Both the position numbers and the translations under genes were made by a program. A stretch of 64,000 nucleotides of DNA from Deltaproteobacteria bacterium (GTDB lineage: Bacteria > Desulfobacterota > Binatia > UBA9968), in NCBI GenBank assembly GCA_016193465.1, contig JACPSE010000052.1, positions 6,450 through 70,449 of the forward strand, written 5' to 3'. Positions within the stretch are counted from its first letter, which is position 1. Each line of letters begins with the position of its first letter. This document shows, piece by piece, positions 12,718-31,458 of this stretch. Below the pieces are notes generated by a model, which saw only the letters and a program-made list of their open reading frames with translations, was not told where the DNA came from and did no database searches.

Positions 12718-13488
12718 CTAGCTCTTTAACTGCAAATCCACTTTCCCCTCATTCCACTCCTTTGCGCTGATGGTTTGGCCGGTTATTTCAGGTTTGTCCT
12801 GGCTAGCAAGAAAGAGGACCAATGGCACGACGACCTCAGGCGGTTGTCCGCCACGTCCATCGACATTCACGCGGCCTCCGGGATGGATGGCATTGGCGCT
12901 GATGCCGTACTCCTTTACTTCTTCAGCGATGGTCTTCATCAGCCCCTCCACCGCATGCTTCGAAGCGCAGTAGGCGCTCTTGCCCGGCACCCCATGGCTT
13001 CCTGCATTGGAGGAGATGCCGATAATGGTTCCCCTTCGCTGTTGCATCATGCGCGGCAGGGCAAAGTGCGTGCACAGGAAAACCGCCCTAAGATTGACAT
13101 TGAGTACAAGGTCCCAATCCTCCACGGGAAGCTCGTGCGCGGGTCGCATTTTCAAACATCTCCAGGTCTCGTAGGTCCCGTCGTTATGTTTCTCCATTCG
13201 TAAGCCTGCGTTGTTGACGAGGATGTCCAATCCGCTCAGCCTTTGGACACAAAAGTCAACCATGTATTCAGCGTTTTTCTCTTGGCTGAGATCGCCGACA
13301 AAAAGATCGCCTTTGCCGCCGAGAGATTGGATCTCTTTTAAGACCTGCTTTCCCTCGCTCTCTCTGACATCCGCGACAAGGACCTTGGCCCCTTCTCGGG
13401 CCAGTCCCAGGGCCATGGCGCGGCCAAGCCCACTGCCACCGCCGGTAACGACAGCCACCTGGCCCGCAATCTTCACTTTTTCTCCCAC
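12718..13488 (-). CDS. SDR family short-chain dehydrogenase/reductase
   Basis: VAVVTGGGSGLGRAMAL NAD(P)-binding motif, catalytic YCASKHAV; ORF in track (to 13722) overextended — probable GTG start ~13488/13476 overlapping stop of upstream rhodanese gene. Confidence 0.75.
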   Translation of the reverse strand: MGEKVKIAGQVAVVTGGGSGLGRAMALGLAREGAKVLVADVRESEGKQVLKEIQSLGGKGDLFVGDLSQEKNAEYMVDFCVQRLSGLDILVNNAGLRMEKHNDGTYETWRCLKMRPAHELPVEDWDLVLNVNLRAVFLCTHFALPRMMQQRRGTIIGISSNAGSHGVPGKSAYCASKHAVEGLMKTIAEEVKEYGISANAIHPGGRVNVDGRGGQPPEVVVPLVLFLASQDKPEITGQTISAKEWNEGKVDLQLKS

Positions 13489-14309
13489 GGCTTCTCGATT
13501 GGCAGGTCTAGCCGGTTTCCCCACTCTCCCCAGGAGCCGAGATAGTTGCGGACTTTGGGGAAGCCGACGAGCCGGAGGGCGAGATAGGTGTGGGCGGAGC
13601 GGTAGCCCCCCTGGCAGTAGGGAATGACCTCCTTGTCGGGGGTCACGCCTAAGCTGGCATACATTTGGCCAAGCTCTGCCGCGGATTTGTATTTTCCGCT
13701 TGAGTCGAGGTTGTTGGTCCATTCGAGATGCACAGCCCGGGGGATTACCCCGCCACGGGCGGCGCGGATGTTCCGTCCCAGGTACTCGTCATCACTGCGG
13801 GTGTCCACGATACAGATATCTTTTCTCCCAAGAGAGTTGAGCACGTCATCAGCCGTGGCCAAGAGATCCCGTCTCTCCGCTGTTTTGAATTGCGCGGCCT
13901 TGGGAGAGACGGCCTCGGTTGTGATCGGGTATCCGGCCTCTCGCCAGGCCTGGATGCCGCCGTCCAACACATGGACATTGGGGTGGCCGAAGTATTCCAG
14001 AAACCATAATCCGCGCGCAGCCCGCATACCGGAATTCTCCTCGTAGAGGACGACCTCTTTTTCTTCACTCACGCCGCGCATCTCCAGGACGTGGCAGATC
14101 ATATACATGAAGGCCTTCAGCGGGGCTGGGTTGGTGTCGATAAGGCTCAGGCCGAAAAGGTCGAAGTGAACAGCGCCCGGGATGTGGCCCTGAGCGAGCT
14201 TTTCGGCTGGCCGGGTGTCAATAAGGACTAAGTTGGGCTCTCCTATTTTTTTATTGAGATCAGCCGGGGTTGTGAGGAGTTCTGAGGGGGTGTATCCTGT
14301 TTTTTCCAT
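13473..14309 (-). CDS. Rhodanese-domain sulfurtransferase (tandem rhodanese, SseA/thiosulfate sulfurtransferase-like)
   Basis: Two rhodanese modules; active-site CQGGYRSA loop; start chosen at MEKTGY (M19 of track ORF). Confidence 0.75.
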   Translation of the reverse strand: MEKTGYTPSELLTTPADLNKKIGEPNLVLIDTRPAEKLAQGHIPGAVHFDLFGLSLIDTNPAPLKAFMYMICHVLEMRGVSEEKEVVLYEENSGMRAARGLWFLEYFGHPNVHVLDGGIQAWREAGYPITTEAVSPKAAQFKTAERRDLLATADDVLNSLGRKDICIVDTRSDDEYLGRNIRAARGGVIPRAVHLEWTNNLDSSGKYKSAAELGQMYASLGVTPDKEVIPYCQGGYRSAHTYLALRLVGFPKVRNYLGSWGEWGNRLDLPIEKPWEKK

Positions 14310-14347
14310 AAGCGACCTTATAACACCACATTGGTCCTGTCTCAAAC

Positions 14348-15451
14348 ATGCTACCCCTTTCAAAGGCTCCCCGCTGCTGGCGCGCGCTCGGGCTGATAGC
14401 TGTTTTCTCCTTTGCCTCCTCCTTTACTTATCAACTTGCCTTGCCCGGAAGAACTATCTCTTTTCCGCGAGACCATTTTTCTCATCCCGATTTTAAGACC
14501 GAGTGGTGGTACTACACGGGCCATTTGGAGACCGAGGGCGGAAAAAAATATGGCTATCAGGTCACCTTCTTTCGTTTCGGCTTGCGCGATCGCCAGAAGC
14601 AAGAGAAAGATAAGGCGCCGCTTTTTACCGAACTCTATCTCGCCCATTTTGCCCTCTCAGACAAACAGGAGAAAAAGTTTCTCTTTCGGGAAAGGGCCAA
14701 CCGCGGTTACAGGGACAAGGCTGGCGCCGCGGTCGATCGCTACCTGGTTTGGAACGAAGAGTGGAAGATCGAGGGCAGCAGGCAGAGCCATATTATGGAA
14801 ATAAAAGATCGGGATGTGGCTTTGAAATTGTACTTGACACCGCTCAAACCGCCGGTTTTGCACGGGGACAGGGGGCTGAGTCAAAAGGGCGAGGGAAAAG
14901 GCAAGGCCTCCTATTATTATTCTTTCACGCGGATGAAGACAGAAGGAGAATTCGAAATTGGGGGAAAGAGAGAAAGAGTTCGGGGTTTGAGCTGGATGGA
15001 CCACGAGTTCGGTAGCAACCAACTGGGAGAAAACCAAGTGGGCTGGGACTGGTTCAGCATCCAGCTCGATAACAAAACGGAGATCATGCTCTATCTGATG
15101 CGCCGGCGGGACGGGTCGCCCGACCCTTATTCCAGTGGCACGTTGATCTATCAAGATGGTTCTACCCGGCATCTTACTCTTGATGATTTTCGCGTGGAAG
15201 TTTTGGAGCGGTGGAAAAGCGTCAAGAGCAGTGGTAACTACCCGATGCGGTGGAGGGTTACGGTCCCATCCGAGCAGATCGAGCTGGAGATTGCGCCGTT
15301 CTTCCGCGAGCAGGAGCTGGACACGCGCAAAAGCACAAGAGTTACTTACTGGGAGGGAAGTGTTGAGGTGCGCGGGAGCTACAAGAAAAGGCCGATTCAG
15401 GGGCTGGGTTATGTGGAGATGACCGGCTATGCGGGGAGATTGAAAGTATAA
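14348..15451 (+). CDS. AttH/CrtC-family lipocalin-fold protein (hydroxyneurosporene-synthase-like), secreted
   Basis: Signal peptide; HFSHPDFKTEWWYYTGH motif characteristic of AttH/CrtC family. Confidence 0.55.
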   Translation: MLPLSKAPRCWRALGLIAVFSFASSFTYQLALPGRTISFPRDHFSHPDFKTEWWYYTGHLETEGGKKYGYQVTFFRFGLRDRQKQEKDKAPLFTELYLAHFALSDKQEKKFLFRERANRGYRDKAGAAVDRYLVWNEEWKIEGSRQSHIMEIKDRDVALKLYLTPLKPPVLHGDRGLSQKGEGKGKASYYYSFTRMKTEGEFEIGGKRERVRGLSWMDHEFGSNQLGENQVGWDWFSIQLDNKTEIMLYLMRRRDGSPDPYSSGTLIYQDGSTRHLTLDDFRVEVLERWKSVKSSGNYPMRWRVTVPSEQIELEIAPFFREQELDTRKSTRVTYWEGSVEVRGSYKKRPIQGLGYVEMTGYAGRLKV

Positions 15452-15543: not shown

Positions 15544-15789
15544 ATGGCCAAGAGTGTGCGCTTGGATAGTCGGTTGGAATCCCGCTTAGAGCGCGCTGCC
15601 CGAGTTCTGGGAATTTCCCAGTCTGAGCTGATTCGGGAGGCGGTAGCCAAAAGGTGCGAGGAGGTGGTAAGGCCATCCCTGGCTGTGAGGCTGGCCCCGC
15701 TCATTGGGCTTATCAAGACCTCGGGTGGCCGTGCCCGGCATACGGGGATGGCTTTTCGACGGGCTCTGGCTAAGAAGAGGGCGCGATGA
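15544..15789 (+). CDS. vapB: Ribbon-helix-helix antitoxin (VapB/CopG-type)
   Basis: MAKSVRLDSRLESRLERAARVLGISQSELIREAV RHH motif; 4-nt overlap (ATGA) with downstream PIN gene. Confidence 0.8.
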   Translation: MAKSVRLDSRLESRLERAARVLGISQSELIREAVAKRCEEVVRPSLAVRLAPLIGLIKTSGGRARHTGMAFRRALAKKRAR

Positions 15790-16202
15790 TCCTCACGGAT
15801 GCTGGACCGTTGGTGGCCCTTATTGATCGAGGCGAACCTGACCACGGTGCCTGTGTGGCTTGCCTGGATAGGTTCACCGGTCCAATGCTCACCACGTGGC
15901 CGGCGTTCACAGAGGCGATGTATTTATTGGGAGAGGCTGGGGGATGGCGTGCGCAGGAGGCCCTCTGGAGGATCCTTCAGGGTGGTGACCTGGAAATCGC
16001 GCCGCAGGGAGCCGAGCATCACGGGCATATACAGGCTTTAATGCGAAAGTATCGGGACCATCCGATGGATCTGGCCGATGCCTCCCTGGTTTGTTTGGCT
16101 GAAGAGCGAGGCTTTCGGGAGATCTTCACTCTAGACCAACGGGACTTTCATACCTACCGCATCCATGGGCGCCAGACCTTTCGTCTCTGGCCGGCGAAGT
16201 AG
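15786..16202 (+). CDS. vapC: PIN-domain toxin VapC
   Basis: MILTDAGPLVALIDRGEPDH N-terminus with conserved acidic residues of PIN fold; coupled to RHH antitoxin. Confidence 0.8.
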   Translation: MILTDAGPLVALIDRGEPDHGACVACLDRFTGPMLTTWPAFTEAMYLLGEAGGWRAQEALWRILQGGDLEIAPQGAEHHGHIQALMRKYRDHPMDLADASLVCLAEERGFREIFTLDQRDFHTYRIHGRQTFRLWPAK

Positions 16203-16288
16203 TGCTGGAGTTGAAGTACCAGAGACTCGCCTAGGGCCTGGGTTCCATCGAGATGACGGGGTATGTGGGGTTAAGGGCGTAAGATGTA

Positions 16289-16864
16289 ATGACTGAGAAG
16301 GAAAAAACCCTTCTTACGGGTTGTCTAAACGGCGACAAGGCAGCCTGGGATGCCTTCGTCCTGCAGTATTCATCTCTCGTCTATCATACAATCAGAAGGA
16401 CCTTCGGTCTTTATCACTCCGACCCTCGCACCGATCTAGTTGAGGACCTTTTTCAGGAAGTTTTTCTCTCGCTTGTCCAAAACGACTTCAAAAAGCTTCG
16501 TCAGTTCAGAGGTGACCGCGGATGCAGTCTGGCGAGTTGGCTCAGGGTTGTTGCGGCAAGACTGACTATCGATTTCTTGAGAAAACAGGGCGCCCCATCT
16601 GTAGAAGTAACTGAGAGCCTTCCCTCCGGCCAGCCTGACCCGCCAGCTTCGCTAATTGATTTTGAAGAAGAGAAGCTGCTTTCCAAAGCCCTGCGAGGCC
16701 TGCCCCCACGGGACCGTCTTTTCCTTGACCTCTCTTATCGCAGAGAGCTCCCGCCAGAAGAGATTGCTGCTATTCTTCAGGTCTCTGTGAGTGCCGTCTA
16801 TACCCAGAAGAGCCGTGTCTTGGCTAAGTTACGAGAAACACTAAGGAAAGCCGCCGCCCTGTAA
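16289..16864 (+). CDS. ECF-family RNA polymerase sigma-70 factor
   Basis: Region 2 (LVEDLFQEVFLSLVQN...FRGDRGCSLASWLRVVAARLTIDFLR) and region 4 (LPPRDRLFLDLSYRRELPPEEIAAILQVSVSAVYTQKSR) hallmarks; ~190 aa. Confidence 0.85.
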   Translation: MTEKEKTLLTGCLNGDKAAWDAFVLQYSSLVYHTIRRTFGLYHSDPRTDLVEDLFQEVFLSLVQNDFKKLRQFRGDRGCSLASWLRVVAARLTIDFLRKQGAPSVEVTESLPSGQPDPPASLIDFEEEKLLSKALRGLPPRDRLFLDLSYRRELPPEEIAAILQVSVSAVYTQKSRVLAKLRETLRKAAAL

Positions 16865-16887
16865 GAAATCCCCGTTCCTCCCGTCTA
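16860..16887 (+). promoter_or_regulatory. ECF-type promoter TGTAAG-N16-CGTCTA (copy A) upstream of small secreted protein gene
   Basis: Motif positions read from sequence; matches B. subtilis sigmaX/W/M-type consensus TGxAAC-N16/17-CGTC; duplicated at 17271-17298. Confidence 0.55.
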
Positions 16888-16930
16888 TTTGGGCAGGAAG
16901 AAAAAATTTCACCCAAAGGAGGAGGGAACT

Positions 16931-17224
16931 ATGAACAAGGCAACGTTTCTTTGTAGTGTGGCTGTACTGAGCCTAGTGGCAGCGTCGGTACGGCCGGCCA
17001 GCGCTGGCGTGGCAGGTGTTGGATGCGCGGTGGAGATGGCAACGGTCGGGGTACCTGGCCGATCCTGCGCGACTGCGATTGTTACTACTGCTGCACCCTA
17101 TGCAGTGGCAACCGGAGCCTGGCTCCGCAACCGTCGGGACGGCTGGACGTACCGTGAAAATCTTGAGGCCGCCCGGAAATACTTGGACCCGTATCGGGGT
17201 TCCAAGACAGTCCGTAGGAGATAG
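16931..17224 (+). CDS. Small secreted hypothetical protein (signal peptide + ~70-aa Ala/Gly/Val-rich mature part, 3 Cys)
   Basis: Start at MNKATF preceded by AAGGAGGAGGG RBS; signal peptide FLCSVAVLSLVAASVRPASA; track ORF start 16889 lies inside 5'UTR. Confidence 0.5.
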   Translation: MNKATFLCSVAVLSLVAASVRPASAGVAGVGCAVEMATVGVPGRSCATAIVTTAAPYAVATGAWLRNRRDGWTYRENLEAARKYLDPYRGSKTVRRR

Positions 17225-17241
17225 CTGGGGGCAGGGGATGG

Positions 17242-17263
17242 CGGACAGAGATCTTTCTCTGTC
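17242..17263 (+). other. Perfect 9-bp-stem hairpin GGACAGAGA-TCTT-TCTCTGTCC between small-protein gene and second ECF promoter
   Basis: Palindrome read directly; no T-tract following. Confidence 0.4.
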
Positions 17264-17270
17264 CGCCGCC

Positions 17271-17298
17271 TGTAAGAAGTCGGCCGGTTTCCCGTCTA
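17271..17298 (+). promoter_or_regulatory. ECF-type promoter TGTAAG-N16-CGTCTA (copy B) upstream of PLA2-like gene
   Basis: ~70-bp unit CCGCCGCC-TGTAAGAA...CCCGTCTATTTGGGCAG..AAGGAGG..ATG shared with copy A. Confidence 0.55.
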
Positions 17299-17337
17299 TT
17301 TGGGCAGAAAGCCAAAATCTCAGTTAAGGAGGGAGCC

Positions 17338-17853
17338 ATGAGAAATCATAGAATTTTTTCTGGAGTTATTGCTTTTAGCATAGGCATCACGTTGCTAATG
17401 CCCCCTAGTGTGGTCAATGCAATAGGGTGGCCTATTTATGGTAATTGGGGAGGGCCTGGTTGGTCAGGCGGCAGCAACGGGAACAAAGCTCCGTGCGATG
17501 TCATGGATGCTGCATTTATGCGCCACGATATCAAGTACGAGCAGGTAAAGGGGCTATGGAGTAGACTGTCGCTGCTTCAAAGGGCCCGCGCTGTTGCTTT
17601 GGCAGACCAGGAACTGGTAAATGAAGTGTCGGCTATAAACCCTGAGACTTTGCGCGTAACATCAAAGTGTAAAGACCTGCCAAAGAGTAAGGGAGTAAGA
17701 AACGATACGATCAATTACTTTAGGCCAAAGGCGAAGCAAAACCAGGAAGTTGCCAGGATGATCCAGACGGGCGAATGTAAAGATGCCGTTGTGAGCCTAT
17801 ATGGCAACTCTGCCTGTATTCGAAAAACCATCGTACTTGGCAAGAGACGATAG
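17338..17853 (+). CDS. Secreted phospholipase A2-like protein (parvovirus VP1u / bacterial PLA2-like motif)
   Basis: Signal peptide ending VVNA; Ca-loop-like YGNWGGPG and catalytic-like D57-AAF-MR-H63-D64-IK-Y67 (DxxAAxxHDxxY). Confidence 0.55.
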   Translation: MRNHRIFSGVIAFSIGITLLMPPSVVNAIGWPIYGNWGGPGWSGGSNGNKAPCDVMDAAFMRHDIKYEQVKGLWSRLSLLQRARAVALADQELVNEVSAINPETLRVTSKCKDLPKSKGVRNDTINYFRPKAKQNQEVARMIQTGECKDAVVSLYGNSACIRKTIVLGKRR

Positions 17854-17919
17854 GAGTCAGGAAAAATAGCCGCCTATGGAAGCAATAAAGAACGGTGTTG
17901 AAAGACAAAAGGGGCAGAT

Positions 17920-19650
17920 ATGCCGAGCATATTAAAATTAGAATTAGATAGGAAAGCCCTTGAGAAGGTTGCGGCAGGCATCTATATGGCTTTTATCCTT
18001 GCCGGCTGCGCCATGCAGCAGATCAGCGGGCCGACAGGGGTGCTTGAAGGAGAGCGGGTTGGCGGAGGGCCTCTAGTTGACTGCCGTGGCTACTTTTCTC
18101 AGGCAGGGCAGGAGATCAAAGCCAGCATTAATGCGCCTCAAGGTCCGGGTCTGGGTCTCGGGTTTGGTTCAACACCTCTGCTCGCCCTTGACTCGATAAC
18201 TGGCGACATGATCTCGCACTACCAGCGCTACTGCCATCAGTACAATGTTGGACTAATCTCGCGCGAAGAGTTTCTCCGAAAGACGGACATGCTCCATGCC
18301 ACACAGACGGCGATCCGGGCAGTGGTGGGTACTGTCCCTCAACCTCTTCCATCACAAGCGTATCCGGTTGCTACGATGCCCGGCATGGGGCCGCCCATGG
18401 ACCCTAATTTTCCTTCCCCATCACTTGGAAGCGCCATGCCAGGAGGTGGCATGCCTGAGGCTACGTCAAAGTCAATGCAGATGGCGGAATCGATCTTTAG
18501 AATGATCCTTGAGGCCATGCGTCTTGCGCCGGGAGTTAGCAGCCCCCCTCAGTTTCCGCCTACGCCGGGGGCCGGTGGTGGGCCGCAGTTTCCGCCGGGT
18601 CCGCGTCCTTCATATCCTCAACCATACCCTCAACCTGGCAGGCCGCCAATGAGTCTCCCGCCCTCTCCCGTTACTTCTTTGCCTCCCTCCTCCGGACAGG
18701 AGGCTAGTCCAGGTCTAGATGGCCTCTTCAGGTCTGTCGTAGACGAGTTGACGCAAATTTCCCGCGTTCAAGGTGGAATGGGCAGGCCGGTTAGAGCAGT
18801 TCTTGGTGAGATCAGTTACAGAAATACCGAATACGGAAGTCCCCTCAGTCTTTTCTTAAAGGAGCGGTTGCGGGAGCAGCTCACTCGCTCGGGTGACTTC
18901 GTTCTGTTAGAGACTCCCAGGCTACGAGGGATCGGAGGTATCAGCAAGCCTAAGGCAGTAACCGCCCTGGCAGAAAGCTCTGGGGCCGATGTCGTCATTA
19001 GCGGGAATTATTGGGATAATCCGGAGGGGATTGACCTGCTCATCTCAATGCGCGAGAGGAGCGAGGATACGCTCCTGGGGGTTTCCCGCTGCTTGCTCCC
19101 ATCTTCTGTGCTTCCCAAGCAGCCTTCGGCTCCGGCTAACCTTGAAGCGGCGCGGTTGAACGAGCTGCTCGAGGAAAGTATTGCCCCACCCTCGGCTGTT
19201 GATCCCGCCAAGCCTTTAAAGGTGGAGGTTTGGACCGACCGAGGGAAAGGCGCCATCTATACTGAGGGAGAAGAGATGTACGTGATGGTTCGTGTCAGCC
19301 AGGATGCTTACGTGCGCCTCTACTATACAGACGCGAACAAGCAGACCTACCAAATTTTTCCGAACAGTTACCGGCCAGAAAGCAGGGTTCAAGGGGGCTC
19401 GGTGCTCACCATACCTAGCCCAGAAGACCGCTTTGCTTTTCGTGTAAAGGCTCCCTTTGGCGTTGAATCTCTTACCGCCCTGGCCAGCCGCAAGCCCTTT
19501 AAAGAGCCAGAAGGAGCTACTCTTTCTACTGGGCCATTTCAGCGGGTTTCTCAAGGTATGAGGGGCATTGCGGTAGTCTCTTCCTCAGTAGGCGAGGGAG
19601 AAGCCGTTCGGGACAGCACTGTGATGACTACAGTATCTCTCAAACGATAA
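17920..19650 (+). CDS. Lipoprotein: Pro-rich linker + TolB-N/LpoB/FlgO-like scaffold domain + C-terminal DUF4384-like beta-sandwich domain
   Basis: Lipobox ILAGC; low-complexity PQFPPTPGAGGGPQFPPGPRPSYPQPYPQPGRPP; VRAVLGEISYRNTEYGSPLSLFLKERLREQL...ADVVISGNYW pattern; C-terminal VEVWTDRGKG..YVRLYYTDANKQTYQIFPN homologous to 21.9-22.2 kb segment. Confidence 0.55.
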   Translation: MPSILKLELDRKALEKVAAGIYMAFILAGCAMQQISGPTGVLEGERVGGGPLVDCRGYFSQAGQEIKASINAPQGPGLGLGFGSTPLLALDSITGDMISHYQRYCHQYNVGLISREEFLRKTDMLHATQTAIRAVVGTVPQPLPSQAYPVATMPGMGPPMDPNFPSPSLGSAMPGGGMPEATSKSMQMAESIFRMILEAMRLAPGVSSPPQFPPTPGAGGGPQFPPGPRPSYPQPYPQPGRPPMSLPPSPVTSLPPSSGQEASPGLDGLFRSVVDELTQISRVQGGMGRPVRAVLGEISYRNTEYGSPLSLFLKERLREQLTRSGDFVLLETPRLRGIGGISKPKAVTALAESSGADVVISGNYWDNPEGIDLLISMRERSEDTLLGVSRCLLPSSVLPKQPSAPANLEAARLNELLEESIAPPSAVDPAKPLKVEVWTDRGKGAIYTEGEEMYVMVRVSQDAYVRLYYTDANKQTYQIFPNSYRPESRVQGGSVLTIPSPEDRFAFRVKAPFGVESLTALASRKPFKEPEGATLSTGPFQRVSQGMRGIAVVSSSVGEGEAVRDSTVMTTVSLKR

Positions 19651-22465: not shown

Positions 22466-25396
22466 ATGTGGATTTTGTTAGCTGATGTTGCTTTGAGATA
22501 TTTGAGCGCGTTGGGATGTATTCGCGCTCGGAGAGATTTCCTATTGTGCAACACTGTTGTTGCTCTTTTGAGCCTGAGCGGCTGCGTGTTGGGCGATCCC
22601 TATGCCACGGGTAGCAGGACTGCTTCAATAGTACGCGTACGCCATGCGCGCTTTGCACGGGAGCTTCCTCCAACAGGAGGCTCGATTCAAGATGCTGATC
22701 TTCCACCGTCCGTTGAAGAATTTTATAACGACCGCGATTCCCACGTATACTTTCTCTTCGCAATGAACCGTCCATTCAAAAACCTGCCCATACAGATTGA
22801 ATGGTTTGACCCTAATGACCGTTTGTATCAAGCTGATACACGGATTACCGGCTGTGTGCGGTGTTCGTGGTGGTGGACTTCAAGCTTTGTGCGTAGTGAG
22901 AAGGTTGCTGACCGCCTTGGCGAGTGGAAAGTAGTTGTATCCACCAAAGGCGAAACTGTAGGTACCTACAAGTTTAGACTTTTGACCGGGGAGAGAGCCC
23001 AGGCCGAACCTCGTTTCACGAAGAGCTATCCGCTATCCATTCTTGCCGCTGCAGAGACAGTTCGAAAAGGCAGAGGTAGCGAAGCCCTTGCCTACTACGA
23101 GTCTCTTGGGCAGGAATCTATTAAGCTAGGAAAGACTCGTGACGCTGGTTTTGCGTACATACTGGCTGCCACTGTCGCGTTATATAGCGGCAATTTTCAT
23201 ACAGCTGTCAATCACTCCTTGAAGAGTTTGGATATCGTTAGGAACCTAAAAGGTAACCACGAGATCACATACCAGGCTTATTTGAAACTAGTTTTGGCAT
23301 TTCTCGAGATTGGCGAGTTTAACGGTGCGAGGTACTACGCGAATCTTATGATGGGGCTCGCGTCAAGTCATACTGATCTTCAATTTAGGGAAAGGCGCTT
23401 GGCTGATAGCCACTGGTATCTGGCTCGGGTTGATGGAGCGCTTGGGAATCACGAGGGTGCAATTGCAAACCTTCTCAGGGCAAAAGGGATATACGAGAAA
23501 CTAATTGACTGGTCGCGGAAGGGGCGCTTGATCGAGATTTCGAATTATTTCTACACCCTCAGCGCGCTTGGTGAGGCGTACTTAAATCAGGGCAATCTTC
23601 AAGAGGCAAAAATATTTTTTGAGCTTGCTATCGATCCACATAAGATATTAGGGAGACGAGTCGTAACAGTAGTTCCGCGAATAGGACTCGGGCGCATTGC
23701 GATGCTTGAGGGGGACTTGGAGGAGGCTAAATATTATTTTAGGGACGCGTTGCGGCGAAGCCGTCGGACCGGAAGACCTTTCCTTATTGCTCGCGCTCTG
23801 CATGGACTAGGACAAACGTACATGCGCCTTGGTCAATGGAAGGAGGGCGTCTCTTTTCTGAAAGAAGCCGCGAGTTACGTGGAAGATATGAGGTCTTCTC
23901 TGAAGGTTGGGGAACTGAGGCAAACGTTCTTAGAGGGGAGGGTATCAGTTTACCGTGATCTCGTTTTAGCGCTGAGGACCTTAGGGGAAGATTCTGATGC
24001 CTTTCACTACGCTGAGCGAGGAAAGGCTCGCGCCTTCTTGGATGTCCTTGCAGCGAAAGTAGCTTTAGCGGATGACGAAAGGGAATTGCGCGAGAAGCTC
24101 GCTGCGCTCCAATTTATAGAGGAAGACGGTGAGACAGGAGTCTCAGGCGAAGAAGTCGAGGCTACAAAAAGAGCTTACAATGACTTTTTAGCCAAGCTGC
24201 GTGAGGAGAATGCCGAGCGGGCGTCATTGATGACGGTGGACCCGCTTAGTTTGAAAGAAGTGCAAAAGCTGTTGGACGCAAAGCAGATCTTGCTCGAATA
24301 TTTTGTTGCGGATGAGAAAACGTTCCTTTGGGTGGTTGGCAAAGATAGCTTTTATGGCTTAACCATCGCGACCCCTCGCAAAGACCTTGTCGGCAGAGTT
24401 AACTCCCTTAGAAAGCTCACATCCGAAATCGGGTCGTTAAGGGAGTACCAGAGAATAGCGGCTGAGCTTTACGATCTCCTCATCCAACCTGCGTTGCCTT
24501 ATGTTAAAGATAAGGAACTCATCATTGTCCCCCATGAGGTCCTCCATTACGTACCCTTTCAGGCGCTGTACTCGAGTCAGGGTAAATATCTTATTGAAGA
24601 CGCCCCCGTGAGCTACCTCTCTAGCGCCAGTCTACTTCAGTTTGTCAAAGAGAAGAGGAAGGCGAAGGGAGACCTGTCTGCCGTGCTGGCACAAGCAGGG
24701 AAGGTCTTGGCCTTTGGGAATCCAGATTTGGGAGATCCGCAAAAGGACTTGCAGTTTGCGGAGTTAGAGGCAGGAGAGGTCAGGAGGCTTTATCCCAAGT
24801 CCAGTGTGTACGTGAGGAAGGAGGCTACGGAGGAAAAGGCGAAGGGCTTATCATCTCAGTATGACATCCTTCACTTTGCCACCCATGCGGAGCTAAAGGA
24901 GGATGATCCTTTATCATCGGCGGTGCTGTTAGCCAAGAACGGCAAAGAAGATGGGAGACTGGAGGTGAGGGAGGTCTTTGGGATGGATTTGAAGGCTAGT
25001 CTGGTAGTGCTCAGTGCGTGTGAGACCGGGTTAGGGAAGCTGTCTACGGGGGATGAGTTGGTAGGACTGACCAGGGCTTTTATTTATGCTGGGACCCCAT
25101 CTGTGGTGGCGAGTCTGTGGAAGGTGGAGGACAGTTCTACAGCGGCGCTGATGGCCAGTTTTTACAAGAATCTTAAGACCATGACTAAGGTGGAGGCCTT
25201 AAGGCAGGCGCAATTGGAGTTGATACGGGGGCAAGCAAGTAGCGACTTACTGGCGAGGAGAGGAGTAGGAGGGATAGGGAGGCTGGGGGAGGTTCCTACG
25301 GGGGAACCCCAATCCCCGACCCCTGGCCCCGTCTCTATCTCCACCGCTCATCCTTACTTTTGGGCACCGTTTATCTTGGTGGGGGATGGGACATAG
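22466..25396 (+). CDS. TPR-repeat + CHAT-domain protease, lipoprotein (paralog 1)
   Basis: Lipobox LSLSGC; TPR-like helical repeats through middle; C-terminal CHAT with ILHFATHAELKEDDP (His) and VVLSACETG (Cys), ...HPYFWAPFILVGDG end; start codon uncertain (alternative TTG ~22544). Confidence 0.75.
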   Translation: MWILLADVALRYLSALGCIRARRDFLLCNTVVALLSLSGCVLGDPYATGSRTASIVRVRHARFARELPPTGGSIQDADLPPSVEEFYNDRDSHVYFLFAMNRPFKNLPIQIEWFDPNDRLYQADTRITGCVRCSWWWTSSFVRSEKVADRLGEWKVVVSTKGETVGTYKFRLLTGERAQAEPRFTKSYPLSILAAAETVRKGRGSEALAYYESLGQESIKLGKTRDAGFAYILAATVALYSGNFHTAVNHSLKSLDIVRNLKGNHEITYQAYLKLVLAFLEIGEFNGARYYANLMMGLASSHTDLQFRERRLADSHWYLARVDGALGNHEGAIANLLRAKGIYEKLIDWSRKGRLIEISNYFYTLSALGEAYLNQGNLQEAKIFFELAIDPHKILGRRVVTVVPRIGLGRIAMLEGDLEEAKYYFRDALRRSRRTGRPFLIARALHGLGQTYMRLGQWKEGVSFLKEAASYVEDMRSSLKVGELRQTFLEGRVSVYRDLVLALRTLGEDSDAFHYAERGKARAFLDVLAAKVALADDERELREKLAALQFIEEDGETGVSGEEVEATKRAYNDFLAKLREENAERASLMTVDPLSLKEVQKLLDAKQILLEYFVADEKTFLWVVGKDSFYGLTIATPRKDLVGRVNSLRKLTSEIGSLREYQRIAAELYDLLIQPALPYVKDKELIIVPHEVLHYVPFQALYSSQGKYLIEDAPVSYLSSASLLQFVKEKRKAKGDLSAVLAQAGKVLAFGNPDLGDPQKDLQFAELEAGEVRRLYPKSSVYVRKEATEEKAKGLSSQYDILHFATHAELKEDDPLSSAVLLAKNGKEDGRLEVREVFGMDLKASLVVLSACETGLGKLSTGDELVGLTRAFIYAGTPSVVASLWKVEDSSTAALMASFYKNLKTMTKVEALRQAQLELIRGQASSDLLARRGVGGIGRLGEVPTGEPQSPTPGPVSISTAHPYFWAPFILVGDGT

Positions 25397-25432: not shown

Positions 25433-28012
25433 ATGAACAGGCTGAGTGAGACAAGAAGATCAAAGAGTAAATATGCTGCCTGGATAACAGCTGTCCTAGC
25501 GCTATTCTTGGCCTCCGGTTGTGCTATCCCCGACCCTAATTTTGAGGTCAGAGAGGGTGCTGTCTTTTATACTCGCCGGGCTCTTTCACGGGGAAAAATT
25601 AAAGAGGCACTGGCTTTTTATGAGTCTGAGGCTCGGACGGCAGAAGAAAACGCGGCGGCTAGTTTCTTTCCTCAACAGTATTGGGATGCTGCAGCTAGGG
25701 CGTACATAGAGGCGGCTAGAGCGGCCCGATTTAATGGGGATTTGCAAAAGTCGATTACCCACGCAAAGAAGGCGCTCGAGGCGGCTGAGAAGGCAAAGAG
25801 CCCCGAGCTTCAAATTGGTGCAATTAGTAATCTCATTTTGCCCTTAAGATCAATCAGGGATTTTGATCAGGTCAGTCCACTGATAGAAAAAGGCTTAAAA
25901 ATTGTAGAGGAAATTCCAACTAACACCAATCGCCGTCTCAGTCGGGAAAGTTCTTTATACGAGCATCTGGGTAAGGATCTTGTTCGTCGGCGAGAATATG
26001 AGCAAGCCATTGTTGCTTTTACCCGCGCTCTTTATTTACAGCAAGACTGGCTGGCTGACCTTTACCGGTGGTTTAGGAAGGACCACCCTTACATAGAAGT
26101 AGCTCGCGTCGGCATTATCCTCAAGATGGAGGCTTTAGGCGATGCCTATCGTCGAGCAGGCCGATTGCAAGACGCACTGCAACAATATGAACGCGCCTTC
26201 AATTTCATAAAAGAGTGGGGATTAAGATATCCTTATGAAAACGCATTGCATCAGGGCATGGGAGAAATCTTTTGGCAGAAGAAGGATTTTCATCAGGCCC
26301 TCGAGCAATTTAACCTAGCCCTAACTTTAGCTGAGAAGCAACAGAGGCCGAACGTGATCAGGTCTGCGAGCCTTCGTATTGCTGACATTTTGGGGCGAAC
26401 GGGCAAGGCTGCCGATGCTATCTCTTACTACCAGAAAGCCATCCAGCAAATCGAGTCTGTCCGCTCTCTCATCACGACTGAGGAATACAGGGGATCCTAT
26501 TTTGCGGGGGGCCTAAGTGCTTACGCCGGTATGACAAGGGCTCTTCTAGACGTAGGTAAGCAAGAGGAGGCCTTTAATTATACTGAGCGCTCACGTTCGC
26601 GGGTCTTCCTGGATGTATTGGGTAGTAAGGTGCAACTGTCGGGAATAAAGGGCGGGCTACTGGCGGAGGAGAGAACTTTAAAGGAGAGGATTGTCTCGAT
26701 CAGGACGAGGTTAGGAGGTCGAGATGGGGAAACAAATGAAGACGGGCAAACGGCGAGGGCGATACTAAGAAGGGAGTTAAGGGAGGCGGAAAGGGCCTAT
26801 GCCGATTTTTTTACTAGGGTCAGGAAGGAAAACAAAGAGCAGGCCTCTTTGATGACAGTTGAGCCTTTGACCGTTAAGGAAGTCCAGGAGTTGCTTGATC
26901 CAGGGGCCACGTTGATTGAGTACTTTGTGACTGAGCGGGAAATCTTTGCCTGGGTTGTCGAGAAAGACAAGGTTCGGTTTGTCAGAGTTGAGCTTCCCAG
27001 AAAGAAGCGTGCTGGCCTGGTTAAGAGCCTGCGGGAGACCATTTTTGCTCTGGGCGATAAGGATAAATTTAGGGTAGCCTCTACTGTTCTCTATCAGCAC
27101 CTCATTGAGGGAATTCTTCCATATGTCACTGGCAAGGAATTAATCATCGTTCCCCACGATGTCCTTCACTACCTTCCATTCCATGCCCTGGTTAGTCCTG
27201 ATGGTCGTTATTTGATCGAGAAGTATCCTATTTACTACCTCTCTAGTGCCAGCCTGCTTCAGTTTACCAAGGAGAAGAGAAAGGCAAAGGGGGACCTGTC
27301 TGCCGTGCTGGCACAGGCAGGGAGGGTTTTGGCCTTTGGGAATCCGGATTTGGGAGATCCTGATAAGGAGTTAAAGTTTGCGGAGTTAGAGGCTCAGGAG
27401 GTTCAGAGACTCTATCCTCAGTCCACCGTGCTTCTGAAGAGGGAGGCCACGGAGGAGAAGGGCAAAACCCTTTCACCGCAGCATGACATACTTCATTTTG
27501 CCACCCATGCGAAGCTGAACGAGGATGATCCGTTATCTTCAGCGATACTCTTAGCCAAGGATGGCACGGAGGATGGGAGGCTGGAGGTAAGAGAGATCTT
27601 CGGAATGGATTTAAAAGCAAATCTGGTAGTTTTAAGTGCCTGTGAGACGGGGTTAGGGAAGCTTTCCACAGGAGATGAGATTGTCGGGTTGACCAGGGCC
27701 TTTATTTATGCAGGCACCCCATCAGTGGTGGCCAGCCTGTGGAAGGTGGAGGATAGTTCTACAGCCTACCTGATGGCCAGCTTTTACAAGAATCTCAGGA
27801 CCATGTCTAAGGTGGAGGCCTTAAGGCAGGCCCAGTTGGAGTTGATCAGGGGACAGGCGAGTAGTGACTTGCTAGCCAGGAGAGGGGTAGGAGGGATAGG
27901 GAGGCTGGGGGAGGTGCCAGAGGCCAAACCCCAATCCCTGGCCCCTGTCTCTGTCTCTACTTCTCACCCCTACTTCTGGGCTCCGTTTATATTGGTGGGA
28001 GATGGGAAGTGA
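25433..28012 (+). CDS. TPR-repeat + CHAT-domain protease, lipoprotein (paralog 2)
   Basis: Classic lipoprotein signal MNRLSETRRSKSKYAAWITAVLALFLASGC; TPR region; CHAT C-terminus ~90% identical to paralogs incl. identical DNA tracts. Confidence 0.8.
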   Translation: MNRLSETRRSKSKYAAWITAVLALFLASGCAIPDPNFEVREGAVFYTRRALSRGKIKEALAFYESEARTAEENAAASFFPQQYWDAAARAYIEAARAARFNGDLQKSITHAKKALEAAEKAKSPELQIGAISNLILPLRSIRDFDQVSPLIEKGLKIVEEIPTNTNRRLSRESSLYEHLGKDLVRRREYEQAIVAFTRALYLQQDWLADLYRWFRKDHPYIEVARVGIILKMEALGDAYRRAGRLQDALQQYERAFNFIKEWGLRYPYENALHQGMGEIFWQKKDFHQALEQFNLALTLAEKQQRPNVIRSASLRIADILGRTGKAADAISYYQKAIQQIESVRSLITTEEYRGSYFAGGLSAYAGMTRALLDVGKQEEAFNYTERSRSRVFLDVLGSKVQLSGIKGGLLAEERTLKERIVSIRTRLGGRDGETNEDGQTARAILRRELREAERAYADFFTRVRKENKEQASLMTVEPLTVKEVQELLDPGATLIEYFVTEREIFAWVVEKDKVRFVRVELPRKKRAGLVKSLRETIFALGDKDKFRVASTVLYQHLIEGILPYVTGKELIIVPHDVLHYLPFHALVSPDGRYLIEKYPIYYLSSASLLQFTKEKRKAKGDLSAVLAQAGRVLAFGNPDLGDPDKELKFAELEAQEVQRLYPQSTVLLKREATEEKGKTLSPQHDILHFATHAKLNEDDPLSSAILLAKDGTEDGRLEVREIFGMDLKANLVVLSACETGLGKLSTGDEIVGLTRAFIYAGTPSVVASLWKVEDSSTAYLMASFYKNLRTMSKVEALRQAQLELIRGQASSDLLARRGVGGIGRLGEVPEAKPQSLAPVSVSTSHPYFWAPFILVGDGK

Positions 28013-28029: not shown

Positions 28030-28497
28030 ATGAGACCTTTGCGAATATATTCTGATACCTCGGTCATCGGCGGATGCTTGGACCGTGAATTTGCCGAGGA
28101 CTCAATGCGCTTTATCAAGGCGGTGGCTAGAGGCCGCTTGGTATTGCTCCTGAGCGAAATCGTCTTGAGAGAACTGGAGGATGCGCCGTCTCGGGTGCGA
28201 GCTTTGCTCACTTCATTACCGAGAGAGGCCGTGGAAAGAGTCGATATAACAGAGGAGGTCCTTGAGCTCCGTGACGCCTATATAAAAGCGAAAATTTTAA
28301 CTGCCCGCTCGGCGAATGATGCTGCCCATGTGGCTGCGGCGACCATCGCGCGGGCTGATGCTATTGTTTCTTGGAACTTCCAACACATTGTCCGCCTGGA
28401 TAAGATGAAGGCTTATAATCGAATCAATCTTCTGCATGGCTATGGAATCTTGACTATCATTTCGCCGAGGGAGGTCTTGGTAGATGAGAAAGAATAA
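28030..28497 (+). CDS. PIN-domain protein (VapC-like putative toxin), no upstream antitoxin
   Basis: LRIYSDTSVIGG N-terminal acidic/ST motif, ANDAAHVAAA, C-terminal D; 155 aa. Confidence 0.55.
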   Translation: MRPLRIYSDTSVIGGCLDREFAEDSMRFIKAVARGRLVLLLSEIVLRELEDAPSRVRALLTSLPREAVERVDITEEVLELRDAYIKAKILTARSANDAAHVAAATIARADAIVSWNFQHIVRLDKMKAYNRINLLHGYGILTIISPREVLVDEKE

Positions 28498-28941: not shown

Positions 28942-31458
28942 GTGCTCAACCCTAAGCTGAGGGTTTGTTTAATAGCTAGCCTATTGTTTTCGCTGACGTG
29001 GACTTGCGCGCTCCCTCCTGAGCCCAGGTTTGCGCCTAGGGCCTCTTCTACGCAGAAGGCTATCTTGGCTGGCGAGATCAAGGAAGCCTTGGCTTCTTAC
29101 GAAGAGCAGGCCCGAGAGGCCGAAAAGAACGCGGCTGCGAGTTTGTTTCCGCAACCGCACCTGAAGGTTGCTGCGCTGGCCTACAAAGAGGCTGCGAGAG
29201 CGGCCCGGGCTAGCGGACAATTGCAAAAAGGGATTGTTTTTGGCGAGAAGGCTTTGGAGATAGCGGAGAAACTAGGTGAGCCTGGATATAAGCTGGAAGC
29301 GTTGGACGTTCTGATCCCTGCGTATCGCAGTATTCGCAGTTTCTCCAAAGCTAGTAACCTCGTCGAGAAAGGATTCAAAGTTATTGACGAGCTTCCTGCC
29401 TCGAGCATCAATAGGGTCTTTTGGGAAGGCCGTTTACACTTGTTCGTAGGCGGAGACTTCCTGCGTGAGCAACAATACGAGAAGGCTATTCTCGCTTATA
29501 CAAATTCCCTTCGGCTCCAAGAGGCGTATCTAACTGAAATGTACACGAGGACCAGGCGCGATGACGCGTCCATGAAAGCTCACCAGACCGCTGTCTTAGC
29601 GGCCAGATCCAAGCTCGGTGATTCGTATCATCGGTCAGGCCGGTTGGAAGAGGCACTTGAGCAATATCGTTTAGCTCTTGTGCTGATAAAAAAGTGGAAT
29701 CTGCGATCCCCGGTAGAACGGGAACTATATCATGACATTGGTGAAATTTATCTTGAAAGCCAGATGTTCTCGGAGGCCTTGGAATACTTCCGGAGGGCGC
29801 TTGCTCTGGCCGAAAGTCAGAGGAGGCCGGACGCCATAATAGAAACGAGCGGTCGTATCGGTACTGTTCTTCACCAATCTGGTAAGCCCGACGAAGCTAT
29901 TGCATATTTTCAGAGAGCAATTCACTTGGTTGAATCAACTCGCTCGGTCTTACAATCAGAAGAATATAGGCAGTCCTATTTCGGCGGCCCGCATCTGCGC
30001 ATCTACGTCAACCTGACACGTTCCTTTCTGCAATTGGGGAGACCGGACGAGGCTTTTAATTACAATGAAAGGGCGCGCTCACGAGTGTTCCTTGATGTTT
30101 TAGGAAGCAAAGTGCAACTGTCTCGGCTGAAAAGTGGCTTGCTGGAAGAGGAGCGGGCTTTAAATGAGAGGATAGCCGGACTTAAGGCAAGATTACAGGG
30201 TGGAGAAGAGGAGGAGGCAGACAGGGCAGGTTTGAGGAAGGAGCTGAGGGAGGCCGAGCAGGCCTACAATGCTTTTCTTGCCAGGGTCAGGAAACAGGAC
30301 AAGGAGCAGCTCTCCTTGATGACAGTTGAGCCTTTGACCGTTAAGGAAATCCAGGAGTTGCTTGATCCAGGGACCACGTTGATTGAGTACTTTGTTACAC
30401 AGCGGGACATCCTTGTTTGGGTCATTGAGAAAGATACGATGCAGTATCTGAGGGTGCAACTGTCCAGAGAGCAGCTTGCTGGTTTGGTTAGGACTCTACG
30501 GGAGACCATTTTTACCCTAGATGAGAGAGACAAGTTTAGGGTTGCCTCCACTACTCTCTATGACTATCTCATTCATCCACTTCTCCCTCATGTGGGTGGC
30601 AAGGAACTAATCATCGTCCCCCACGATGTTCTTCATTATCTCCCCTTTCATGCCCTGCTCGCCGCTGATGGCCGCTATCTGATCGAGAAGTATCCTATTT
30701 ATTACCTCTCCAGCGCCAGTTTGCTTCAGTTCACCCAGGAGAAGAGGAAGGCGAAGGGGGAGAAGGTCTTGGCCTTTGGTAACCCGGATTTGGGAGATCC
30801 TAAGATGGAGCTTAAGTTTGCTGAGACTGAGGCCAGAGAGATAGCGACGCTTTACCCACAATCTACGGTGCTCGTAAAAAAAGAGGCCACGGAGGAGAAG
30901 GGCAAAACCCTTTCACCGCAGCACGACATTCTCCATTTTGCCACTCATGCGGAGCTTAAGGAGGAAGATCCTTTATCATCGGCTGTGTTATTGGCCAAAG
31001 AAGATAAGGAGGATGGGAGGCTGGAGGTAAAGGAGATCTTCGGCATGGATCTCAAAGCCAACCTTGTAGTTTTAAGTGCCTGTGAGACGGGGTTAGGGAA
31101 GCTTTCCACAGGAGATGAGATTGTCGGGTTGACCAGGGCCTTTATTTATGCAGGCACCCCATCAGTGGTGGCCAGCCTGTGGAAGGTGGAGGACAGCAGC
31201 ACGGCAGCCCTGATGGCCAGCTTTTACAAGAATCTCAGGACCATGTCTAAGGTGGAGGCCTTAAGGCAGGCCCAGTTGGAGTTGATCAGGGGACAAACGA
31301 GCAGTGATTTGCTGGCCAGGAGGGGAGTGGGAGGGATAGGGAAGTTGGGTGAGGTACCTGAAGCTAAACTCCAATCCCCGACCCCTATCCCCGCCTCTAT
31401 TTCCACGTCCCACCCTTACTTCTGGGCCCCGTTCATATTGGTGGGAGATGGGAAATAG
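28942..31458 (+). CDS. TPR-repeat + CHAT-domain protease, secreted/lipoprotein (paralog 3)
   Basis: Signal peptide VCLIASLLFSLTWTC; TPR region; CHAT C-terminus with identical 127-bp and 77-bp tracts vs paralog 2; 9-aa deletion (DLSAVLAQAG) relative to paralogs 1/2. Confidence 0.8.
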   Translation: MLNPKLRVCLIASLLFSLTWTCALPPEPRFAPRASSTQKAILAGEIKEALASYEEQAREAEKNAAASLFPQPHLKVAALAYKEAARAARASGQLQKGIVFGEKALEIAEKLGEPGYKLEALDVLIPAYRSIRSFSKASNLVEKGFKVIDELPASSINRVFWEGRLHLFVGGDFLREQQYEKAILAYTNSLRLQEAYLTEMYTRTRRDDASMKAHQTAVLAARSKLGDSYHRSGRLEEALEQYRLALVLIKKWNLRSPVERELYHDIGEIYLESQMFSEALEYFRRALALAESQRRPDAIIETSGRIGTVLHQSGKPDEAIAYFQRAIHLVESTRSVLQSEEYRQSYFGGPHLRIYVNLTRSFLQLGRPDEAFNYNERARSRVFLDVLGSKVQLSRLKSGLLEEERALNERIAGLKARLQGGEEEEADRAGLRKELREAEQAYNAFLARVRKQDKEQLSLMTVEPLTVKEIQELLDPGTTLIEYFVTQRDILVWVIEKDTMQYLRVQLSREQLAGLVRTLRETIFTLDERDKFRVASTTLYDYLIHPLLPHVGGKELIIVPHDVLHYLPFHALLAADGRYLIEKYPIYYLSSASLLQFTQEKRKAKGEKVLAFGNPDLGDPKMELKFAETEAREIATLYPQSTVLVKKEATEEKGKTLSPQHDILHFATHAELKEEDPLSSAVLLAKEDKEDGRLEVKEIFGMDLKANLVVLSACETGLGKLSTGDEIVGLTRAFIYAGTPSVVASLWKVEDSSTAALMASFYKNLRTMSKVEALRQAQLELIRGQTSSDLLARRGVGGIGKLGEVPEAKLQSPTPIPASISTSHPYFWAPFILVGDGK

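Follow-up and report, generated by a model that had tools for sequence, protein, structure and literature searches.

The locus described here touches two lines of earlier work, one on phospholipases A2 (PLA2s) and one on the control of extracytoplasmic function (ECF) sigma factors. In parvovirus B19, the PLA2 of VP1u requires Y130, G132 and G134, H153, D154 and Y157, and A174 and D175 for activity (PMC3626588), and PLA2 is already established as a polymorphic-toxin domain (Tox-PLA2; PMC3482391). In the DdvA/DdvS system, an anti-sigma factor with TPR-CHAT gates an ECF sigma factor (PMC11506125). Here we analyse a stretch of 64,000 nucleotides (the window) from the assembly of a Deltaproteobacteria bacterium (Desulfobacterota; Binatia; UBA9968; contig JACPSE010000052.1), which carries an ECF sigma factor gene and, shortly downstream, an open reading frame (ORF) for a small PLA2-like protein (Table 1). 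This protein is likely a Sec-exported, basic, ∼16-kDa, Ca2+-dependent PLA2-like enzyme made under the promoter of the adjacent ECF sigma factor. The original prediction, made from the letters of the sequence, had proposed a secreted protein with a parvovirus-type PLA2 signature under an ECF-type promoter.

The elements that the original prediction had named are found in the ORF: a signal peptide ending in VVNA, YGNWGGPG, and D-VMD-AAF-MR-HD-IK-Y. Past the signal peptide come Y34GNWGGPG41 and D54VMD57AAFMRH63D64IKY67, 12 residues apart rather than the 'about 15' first given; a further conserved pair, A89-D90, had not been named there. The N-terminus, MRNHR-IFSGVIAFSIGITLLM-PPSVVNA followed by IG, has the n/h/c arrangement typical of a Sec signal peptide, and the single hydrophobic 19-mer window of the protein lies at residues 6-29. 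Sec export with cleavage after A28 is therefore predicted, and the proposed secretion gains from the two nearest homologues, P0002 and P0025, whose signal peptides are kept in type, not in sequence. The helical PLA2-like core extends over about residues 29-145, and the whole protein has only four cysteines, at positions 53, 111, 147 and 160. An identical protein is on deposit as a hypothetical protein of a Deltaproteobacteria bacterium metagenome-assembled genome, and the locus was assembled from four sequencing runs. Compared with the 75%-identical orthologue P0002 (locus L097), the ratio of nonsynonymous to synonymous substitution rates (dN/dS) amounts to 0.19 for the mature part, against a higher 0.39 for the signal peptide. 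The value for the mature part argues that the gene is real and constrained, with the motif residues included in the purifying selection. Basic C-terminal tails occur in the PLA2-like protein (...VLGKRR, 17836-17853), in homologue P0025 (...LAARR) and in the small exported-type protein ORF97 encoded upstream (...SKTVRRR, 17203-17224); this common tail could be a C-terminal sorting or processing signal, or coincidence.

Judged by family-level profile searches, the PLA2-like family sits firmly in the PLA2 superfamily. A profile of four sequences, searched against 1.84 billion representatives, retrieved 434 proteins at E ≤ 1e-3, 30 of them at E ≤ 1e-10. In the family alignment of 79 members (A3), D57, H63 and D64 are invariant, and the columns conserved in at least 90% include Y34, G35, G38, G45, D54, Y67, A89, D90 and L93; by alignment, these are the positions needed for a PLA2 active site. 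Against PDB sequences, the A3 profile best matched rice secretory PLA2 (2wg7/2wg8; E = 8.7e-6), followed by dozens of venom, pancreatic and group II/V/X PLA2s between 1e-3 and 5e-2 and by a parvovirus VP1 (9cuz, residues 22-85) at 2e-3. Among the 60 PDB matches listed, 59 were PLA2s and one was the parvovirus VP1.

These alignments bring the catalytic residues into register. On venom PLA2 3v9m, HD..Y of the family falls on H48/D49/Y52 and the Asp of AD..L on D99 in 'CACDAAAAKC'. The family Ca loop aligns to YGKYCG of rice PLA2, with W37-G38-G39-P40-G41 equivalent to Y28-C29-G30-x-G32 and Y34-G35 to Y25-G26. Aligned in this way, the protein has the features of the secretory PLA2 (sPLA2) superfamily: H63-D64-x-x-Y67, a glycine-rich loop and a second Asp, D90. 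The residues essential in B19 map to W37/G39/G41, H63/D64/Y67 and A89/D90. The sole Pfam match of the protein is PF08398 (Phospholip_A2_4, the parvoviral VP1u domain; 13.8 bits, E = 0.075), with 16.2 bits for residues 29-101 only. PF08398 is, independently, also the best Pfam match of the three nearest homologues, and 11 of the 79 members of A3 match it at E ≤ 0.01 (best 1.5e-7); a few match PF00068, PF05826 or PF06951. The parvoviral character of the signature thus stands on its best Pfam family and on the family profiles, whereas the YxGxG pattern first proposed gives way to the register W37-G38-G39-P40-G41.

Could the pattern have arisen by chance, in some small protein with no relation to PLA2s or in a non-coding ORF? 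The single-sequence statistics would allow it, with Pfam at the E value above and PDB at E of about 1; the closest PDB entry in a phmmer search with the one sequence was a snake PLA2 (E = 1.1, catalytic residues in register). The family profile statistics, the in-register residues, the conservation and the dN/dS values nevertheless effectively refute this reading, and we rejected it.

An AlphaFold2 model built from the 79-sequence alignment has a pLDDT of 81.7 and a pTM of 0.79. It supersedes an earlier model from a four-sequence alignment (pLDDT 62), in which the Ca loop was disordered. The predicted layout is a loop at 29-54, long helices at 55-72 (with H63/D64/Y67) and 79-98 (with D90), and a third long helix after these; the helix with the H63/D64/Y67 triad is predicted at pLDDT >90. 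An antiparallel arrangement of the helix pair was deduced from the secondary structure of the model, and H63 and D90, which lie similarly far from the short turn between the helices, are consistent with the sPLA2 pair. Searched with Foldseek against the PDB, the model found rice PLA2 on top (prob 0.99, TMt 0.58, root-mean-square deviation 4.0 Å over 112 columns) and bovine PLA2 further down. Among viral models, the top match was an uncharacterised 1044-residue 'uncultured Caudovirales phage' protein, followed by several densovirus and parvovirus VP1s, all with weak E-values.

The second half of the proposal concerns the promoter. A motif, TGTAAG-N16-CGTCTATTT, is present twice in the window, upstream of ORF97 and upstream of the PLA2-like gene. 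The 66-75 nt 5′ of the two genes are about 80% identical and share two like blocks, CCTGTAAGAA and TCCCGTCTATTTGGGCAG, with a diverged spacer between them. The stop codon of the sigma gene lies inside copy 1, and copy 2 includes the last codons of the sigma gene. ECF promoters are bipartite, with −35 (..AAC/AAG..) and −10 (CGTC) elements 16-17 nt apart, and we take TGTAAG-N16-CGTCTA to resemble such promoters, for example the consensus of B. subtilis SigX, SigM and SigW.

Loci with sigma orthologues 61-85% identical to that of the window were compared. In them, the form GTAAGAA-N14-CGTCTATTT has 11 distinct copies, each with the same orientation as the sigma gene; unrelated loci totalling about 0.5 Mb hold zero copies. 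Across copies the flanking blocks are conserved and the spacers are variable. The motif adjoins orthologous sigma genes in seven other loci (six distinct). In L088/89, L092 and L094 it overlaps the sigma stop codon ahead of the anti-sigma gene; in L093 it follows the sigma gene, shortly before the end of the contig; two copies lie downstream of sigma in L096. L090/91 have it ahead of the anti-sigma gene despite an inverted MazE/PIN pair inserted after sigma; in L090, where this pair has split the two genes, the promoter was duplicated in front of the anti-sigma gene together with what remains of a sigma 3′-end. The contig of L097 begins inside the element, and CCCGTCTATTTGGGCAGAAAG (the −10 half and downstream block) is kept 5′ of the PLA2-like orthologue P0002. 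The ECF-type promoter of the original prediction is thereby supported by a motif conserved at orthologous sigma loci and upstream of a 75%-identical orthologue of the gene. On this conservation, TGTAAG-N16-CGTCTATTT is probably the promoter that the adjacent ECF sigma factor targets. A search of the window for a copy 5′ of the sigma gene came up empty; there is thus no sign of classical autoregulation through a promoter in that position.

L095 has three extra copies of the motif (9260, 9912 and 11302), each ∼70-90 nt 5′ of an exported-type gene. The products led by these copies are of 130, 379 and 120 aa with signal-peptide or lipobox N-termini; one source lists the sigma factor there as Candidatus Binatia. 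Judging by L095, the motif seems to work as a portable cassette with exported cargo.

Table 1. Coordinates and identifiers of the features discussed. Positions are those of the window unless a locus (L) is named.
Feature	Position	Strand	Remarks
ECF sigma factor gene, 191 aa	16289..16864	+	Pfam Sigma70_r2/r4_2; TIGR02937 sigma70-ECF 1.5e-28
Candidate promoter copy 1	16860..16896	+	TGTAAG 16860-16865, 16-nt spacer, CGTCTA 16882-16887, then TTTGGGCAG; ahead of ORF97
ORF97, small exported-type protein	16931..17224	+	signal peptide ending ASA; basic mature part, isoelectric point (pI) 10.3
13-bp perfect G+C-rich hairpin	17239..17268	+	GGCGGACAGAGAU-CUUU-CUCUGUCCGCC; between ORF97 stop and promoter copy 2
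Candidate promoter copy 2	17271..17307	+	TGTAAG 17271-17276, 16-nt spacer, CGTCTA 17293-17298, then TTTGGGCAG; ahead of PLA2-like gene
Ribosome-binding site AAGGAGG	17326-17332	+	5 nt ahead of ATG; read from sequence
PLA2-like ORF, 171 aa	17338..17853	+	ATG start
Predicted signal peptide, residues 1-28	17338..17421	+	MRNHR / hydrophobic core / PPSVVNA
Predicted mature PLA2-like protein, 143 aa	17422..17853	+	15.9 kDa, pI 9.7; range includes stop codon
Putative Ca2+-binding loop	17437..17472	+	Y34-G-N-W37-G-G39-P-G41-W-S-G-G45
Predicted catalytic helix	17497..17538	+	D54-V-M-D57-A-A-F-M-R-H63-D64-I-K-Y67
A89-D90	17602..17607	+	proposed counterpart of sPLA2 D99 / B19 VP1u A174-D175
DUF4384 lipoprotein, 576 aa	17920..19650	+	lipobox ILAGC; Pfam DUF4384 1e-23; 66 nt after PLA2-like gene
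zf-HC2 anti-sigma factor, 234 aa	19675..20379	+	no hydrophobic segment
CHAT-DUF4384 protein, 658 aa	20418..22394	+	one transmembrane helix (375-404) between CHAT protease domain and DUF4384
Three TPR-CHAT proteins	22466-25396, 25433-28012, 28942-31458	+
PIN gene	28030-28497	+	among the TPR-CHAT genes
Toxin-antitoxin cassettes	15544-16202, 28030-28497; L090 7605-8362; L093 5373-5934; L096 2539-3188; L094 4949-5350		window and orthologous loci
RHS-tip PLA2-like domains, loci	L008, L018, L020, L026, L028-L032, L037-L040, L044, L046, L048, L050, L053, L054, L060-L067, L069, L071-L073, L075, L077-L081, L083, L085
RHS-tip PLA2-like domains, proteins			P0053, P0061, P0072, P0076, P0079, P0097, P0098 and others
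PLA2-like domain at extreme N-terminus of very large proteins	L009 (2370-8594), L058 (5060-12718), L014, L017, L074		P0088, P0093, P0151

The sigma factor has 505 homologues at E ≤ 1e-20, many of them 60-85% identical. Around its orthologues a module is conserved that comprises rhodanese, AttH and toxin-antitoxin pair genes, the sigma factor, a zf-HC2 anti-sigma factor (234-239 aa) and a CHAT-DUF4384 protein. In L088, L092 and L094 the anti-sigma gene directly follows the sigma gene with a gap of about 63-66 nt, and CHAT-DUF4384 after the anti-sigma gene is kept in these three loci and in L096. TPR-CHAT genes are found in most orthologous loci, including L088, L090, L092 and L096. The window has ORF97, the PLA2-like gene, the DUF4384 lipoprotein gene and the second promoter copy between sigma and anti-sigma. 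ORF97 belongs to no known family in Pfam or NCBIfam; independent assemblies of this locus also have it annotated as a gene of 97 aa. The gaps after the PLA2-like gene are short (66, 24 and 38 nt) and contain no predicted terminator, so promoter copy 2 probably drives the anti-sigma and CHAT genes too; with the anti-sigma gene on this putative transcript, we infer negative feedback.

Other features of the locus are recorded here in their own right. The RNA fold of 17222-17345 (124 nt), which takes in the 13-bp hairpin, has −51.9 kcal/mol and z = −3.1 against shuffled sequences. The hairpin has no U-tract, a terminator scan gave no call there, and an Rfam scan of 16000-18200 found no RNA family; it is possibly a terminator or insulator. 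CHAT-DUF4384 is often fused to a Guanylate_cyc domain (L088 3063-5810, L092 2587-5334, L094 7349-10039), which the 658-aa window form lacks. The rhodanese (−) and CrtC/AttH-type lipocalin (+) genes of the window (13473-15451) overlap at their 5′ ends. Varied toxin-antitoxin cassettes (RHH-PIN, MazE-PIN, Phd/YefM, DUF433-PIN_10) lie beside or inside the module across genomes.

The gene might be a phage-derived passenger, such as a moron or lysis accessory, with the repeated upstream element a duplication scar and no promoter. In keeping with this, the protein and 10 of the 79 family members match phrog_11353, a PHROG of unknown function (E = 4e-4 for the window protein), many relatives either are ∼100 aa long and encoded on short metagenomic contigs or form the N-termini of giant proteins, and some 75 nt, the last sigma codons among them, are common to both window copies, as a duplication would leave them. 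Yet no phage genes flank the gene, and the flanks (rhodanese, AttH/CrtC, PIN, sigma, anti-sigma, CHAT) are chromosomal and conserved; the synteny of the rhodanese and lipocalin genes with L090, L094 and L096 supports a chromosomal, not a mobile, context. Nor would a scar explain why the blocks are conserved around a divergent spacer across loci with sigma factors this far apart, or why L095 has its three copies before exported-type genes. We regard this origin as very improbable.

The same neighbourhood invites a second alternative, in which a CHAT-gated ECF circuit senses phage or envelope damage and the periplasmic phospholipase then lyses its producer, as abortive infection or programmed death. 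ECF sigma factors gated by CHAT and TPR-CHAT proteases are known from defence settings (DdvA/DdvS, PMC11506125; craspase papers), and the locus has PIN toxin-antitoxin modules as well as four CHAT genes. An immunity gene was not identified, and the mature form is basic, a common trait of membrane-active proteins. On the other side, PADLOC found no known defence system in its scan, with only weak BovA and TPR matches; the PLA2-like gene is missing from most orthologous sigma/CHAT loci, which means that it is not a core effector of the module; and the anti-sigma gene downstream on the same putative transcript suggests damped rather than runaway expression. A self-directed executioner of this kind is unlikely.

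The favoured reading, an exported enzyme under ECF control, must also be set against a protein with a PLA2 fold and without lipase activity, serving as a periplasmic binding or signalling partner of the DUF4384 lipoprotein or of the CHAT-transmembrane-DUF4384 sensor. A DUF4384-lipoprotein orthologue also follows P0002 in L097, and on these two organisms the lipoprotein gene is, by gene order, a conserved partner of the PLA2-like gene. This tight pairing would suit an inactive partner, as would the placement of the gene between sigma and anti-sigma within a signalling module, the lack of an evident immunity gene and the precedent of inactive PLA2 homologues in venoms. Those inactive homologues, though, typically lose D49 or the loop glycines, whereas the window protein keeps all catalytic and Ca-binding positions that are invariant or at least 90% conserved in the family, and its mature part, motif residues included, is under purifying selection. 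We consider an inactive protein improbable.

The wider family takes several forms around a common hallmark, YGNWGGPGWSGG...D.MD..F..HD..Y...AD..L. Some members are stand-alone proteins of ∼95-140 aa with a hydrophobic or amphipathic C-terminal helix; others are stand-alone proteins with a signal peptide, as in the window (P0002, P0025, P0068, P0090). In RHS proteins of up to 2776 aa the domain is C-terminal, right after the 'DPxGL' junction, and in proteins of 700-2550 aa it is N-terminal. The YGNWGGPGWSGG domain at the tip of RHS/YD-repeat proteins, after DPxGL...NPxxxxDPxGL, is in the position of a polymorphic toxin. The very large proteins with an N-terminal domain may belong to phages, as components of the virion or of DNA ejection, or may be secreted effectors. 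In a further form, the N-terminal domain precedes a 2A-like DPGVESNPGP motif. P0048, P0062, P0080, P0106 and P0132 (338-425 aa) begin with MxxxVPTYGNWGGPGYSGG..., and LDPG(V/I)E(S/P)NPGP comes ∼110 residues on. Polyproteins of eukaryotic RNA viruses typically carry the latter as their 2A 'ribosome-skipping' signature, and its presence suggests that such viruses, too, make use of this PLA2 clade.

Nearly all family members are without Pfam annotation or name. A literature search for PF08398 found nothing, and one on bacteriophage homologues of parvoviral PLA2 found no description of this clade among the titles listed. On its profiles, the clade is best described as a large, essentially unannotated, cysteine-poor bacterial and phage branch of the sPLA2s, outside every named family. 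A scan of GTDB genomes with the subfamily alignment returned false positives only (L001-L003, Parvibaculum metagenome-assembled genomes). The PCDVMDAA pattern is also found in Parvibaculum enoyl-ACP reductase FabI (…VMPCDVMDAASMDAVF…), the source of these three false relatives. When the window sigma factor, ORF97, DUF4384, anti-sigma and CHAT proteins were compared by tblastn with 80 metagenome loci, two distant, probably incidental matches appeared, and the ECF/CHAT context is therefore taken to be particular to the window lineage. A general role of ORF97 or the DUF4384 protein as immunity partner was considered and is unsupported by this comparison. The arrangement of a sigma-controlled, stand-alone, exported PLA2-like protein with a DUF4384 lipoprotein was seen in two organisms only.

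Several findings weigh against an exported enzyme under ECF control. Significant profile similarity to known PLA2s is reached at family level only: the protein alone misses the PF08398 gathering threshold of 23.9 bits, and an NCBIfam scan gave no match. Foldseek E-values are weak, at 0.13 for the PDB and 0.056 for viral structures. The classical sPLA2 disulfide scaffold is missing, the cysteines of the CC..HD..C pattern of groups I/II/XI being replaced by A-F and I-K, a likeness to the cysteine-free parvoviral group XIII; together with the sub-threshold PF08398 score and the lack of Tox-PLA2 motifs, this leaves the protein short of three standard marks of membership. Near the RHS-linked homologues there was no ORF97 or DUF4384 relative, and no immunity-like gene was identified. 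The gene pair with its promoter is seen in one independent orthologue only (P0002), where the −35 is lost at the contig end. Of the computational checks named in the original prediction, the profile search leaves the single protein below threshold while the family profile reaches PLA2s, and the structure comparison has rice PLA2 as the top PDB match at a weak E-value.

With these points counted, we picture the exported enzyme as follows. Transcription would start at the TGTAAG-N16-CGTCTATTT promoter once the sigma factor is freed, and the transcript appears to cover both the PLA2-like gene and the DUF4384 lipoprotein gene, and probably the anti-sigma and CHAT genes as well. The CHAT proteases may release the sigma factor; this step is speculative, and the link from protease to anti-sigma factor is drawn by analogy with DdvA/DdvS and craspase. 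The 658-aa CHAT protein would carry its DUF4384 on the far side of its transmembrane helix, and the anti-sigma factor would be soluble. By homology, the backbone carbonyls of W37, G39 and G41 would hold Ca2+ together with D64, and H63, backed by D90 and Y67, would activate water, such that the sn-2 ester of membrane phospholipids is cut. A basic protein surface may help hydrolysis at the membrane. Periplasmic or extracellular, the enzyme would attack the envelope lipids of its own cell or the membrane of a competitor, or would serve in self-lysis of the producer. On its sequence features, it is probably a stress- or signal-induced enzyme that cuts membrane lipids. A bolder version makes it the lytic or membrane-attacking output of an undescribed pathway, in which the membrane-spanning CHAT protease, with its external DUF4384 domain and a DUF4384 lipoprotein partner for sensing, would cleave the soluble zinc-finger anti-sigma factor and so let the ECF sigma factor turn on exported effectors from portable promoters, and makes the clade a prokaryotic relative or source of the parvoviral VP1u PLA2. 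We hold this version as a long shot.

Nothing in the PLA2-like and ECF findings overturns expectations. If they are confirmed, a large unannotated branch, with hundreds of 50%-identity clusters, would be added to the PLA2 superfamily. The cysteine-free parvoviral enzyme would be linked to plant and bacterial enzymes, with candidates at hand for the origin of the viral domain. A promoter motif and regulon logic would have been defined computationally for an uncharacterised ECF sigma clade, one whose members always come with CHAT (caspase-like) proteases and a zinc-finger anti-sigma factor, and the motif appears to be a portable cassette able to recruit new exported cargo genes. At 143 aa the mature protein is small, and with it one could readily ask whether bacteria use a PLA2 under sigma control, in the periplasm or secreted, for envelope remodelling, competition or self-lysis.

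Among known systems, the closest by Pfam is the parvovirus VP1u PLA2 (group XIII, PF08398). Both have a Ca loop containing GPG, a D..AA...HD..Y helix, an 'AD' with the second catalytic Asp about 22-27 residues past the His, and few or no disulfides. VP1u is the N-terminus of a capsid protein, whereas the window protein is stand-alone and of a Sec-exported type, its YGNWGGPGWSGG loop is extended, and it has an additional helix and a tail at its C-terminus; a role in endosomal escape is impossible for it. Rice OsPLA2 (group XI; 2wg7/2wg8/2wg9) is the best solved structure by both profile and fold, and shares the spacing YG.(Y/W).G...SG....PCD.(L/M)DA...HD. The plant enzyme differs in its six disulfides, in an identity of about 16% and in an Asn (CNENL) aligned with the Asp of the family's AD..L.

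Tox-PLA2 and the Streptomyces-type group XIV enzymes (1kp4, PF09056) offer a bacterial PLA2-fold domain deployed as a secreted or RHS-delivered toxin (PMC3482391). PF09056 is, in contrast, not among the six Pfam families matched by members at E ≤ 0.01. We rejected an assignment to Tox-PLA2, whose DxC[ST] and CxxHxxxYxN are absent from the window protein (AAFMRHDIKYEQ); it has D54-V-M-D and A-A-F-M-R-H-D-I-K-Y-E-Q instead, and so lacks both the Cys at position −3 from the His and the Asn at +2 from the Tyr. The window protein is also a 171-aa pre-protein with no RHS or delivery domain and no adjacent immunity gene, whereas many of its relatives form the C-terminal tips of RHS proteins.

For the regulatory genes, the nearest parallels are DdvS/DdvA of M. 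xanthus and the type III-E craspase Csx29, a TPR-CHAT protein with an associated ECF sigma factor, where, as in the window, ECF sigma factor, zinc-finger anti-sigma factor and CHAT or TPR-CHAT are encoded together in a deltaproteobacterial-type lineage. The window locus departs from them in four ways. Its anti-sigma factor is a separate soluble protein, with CHAT on other polypeptides; one of its CHAT proteins is membrane-spanning with an external DUF4384; CRISPR and CBASS genes are absent from the locus; and its output genes encode exported-type proteins, including the PLA2-like enzyme.

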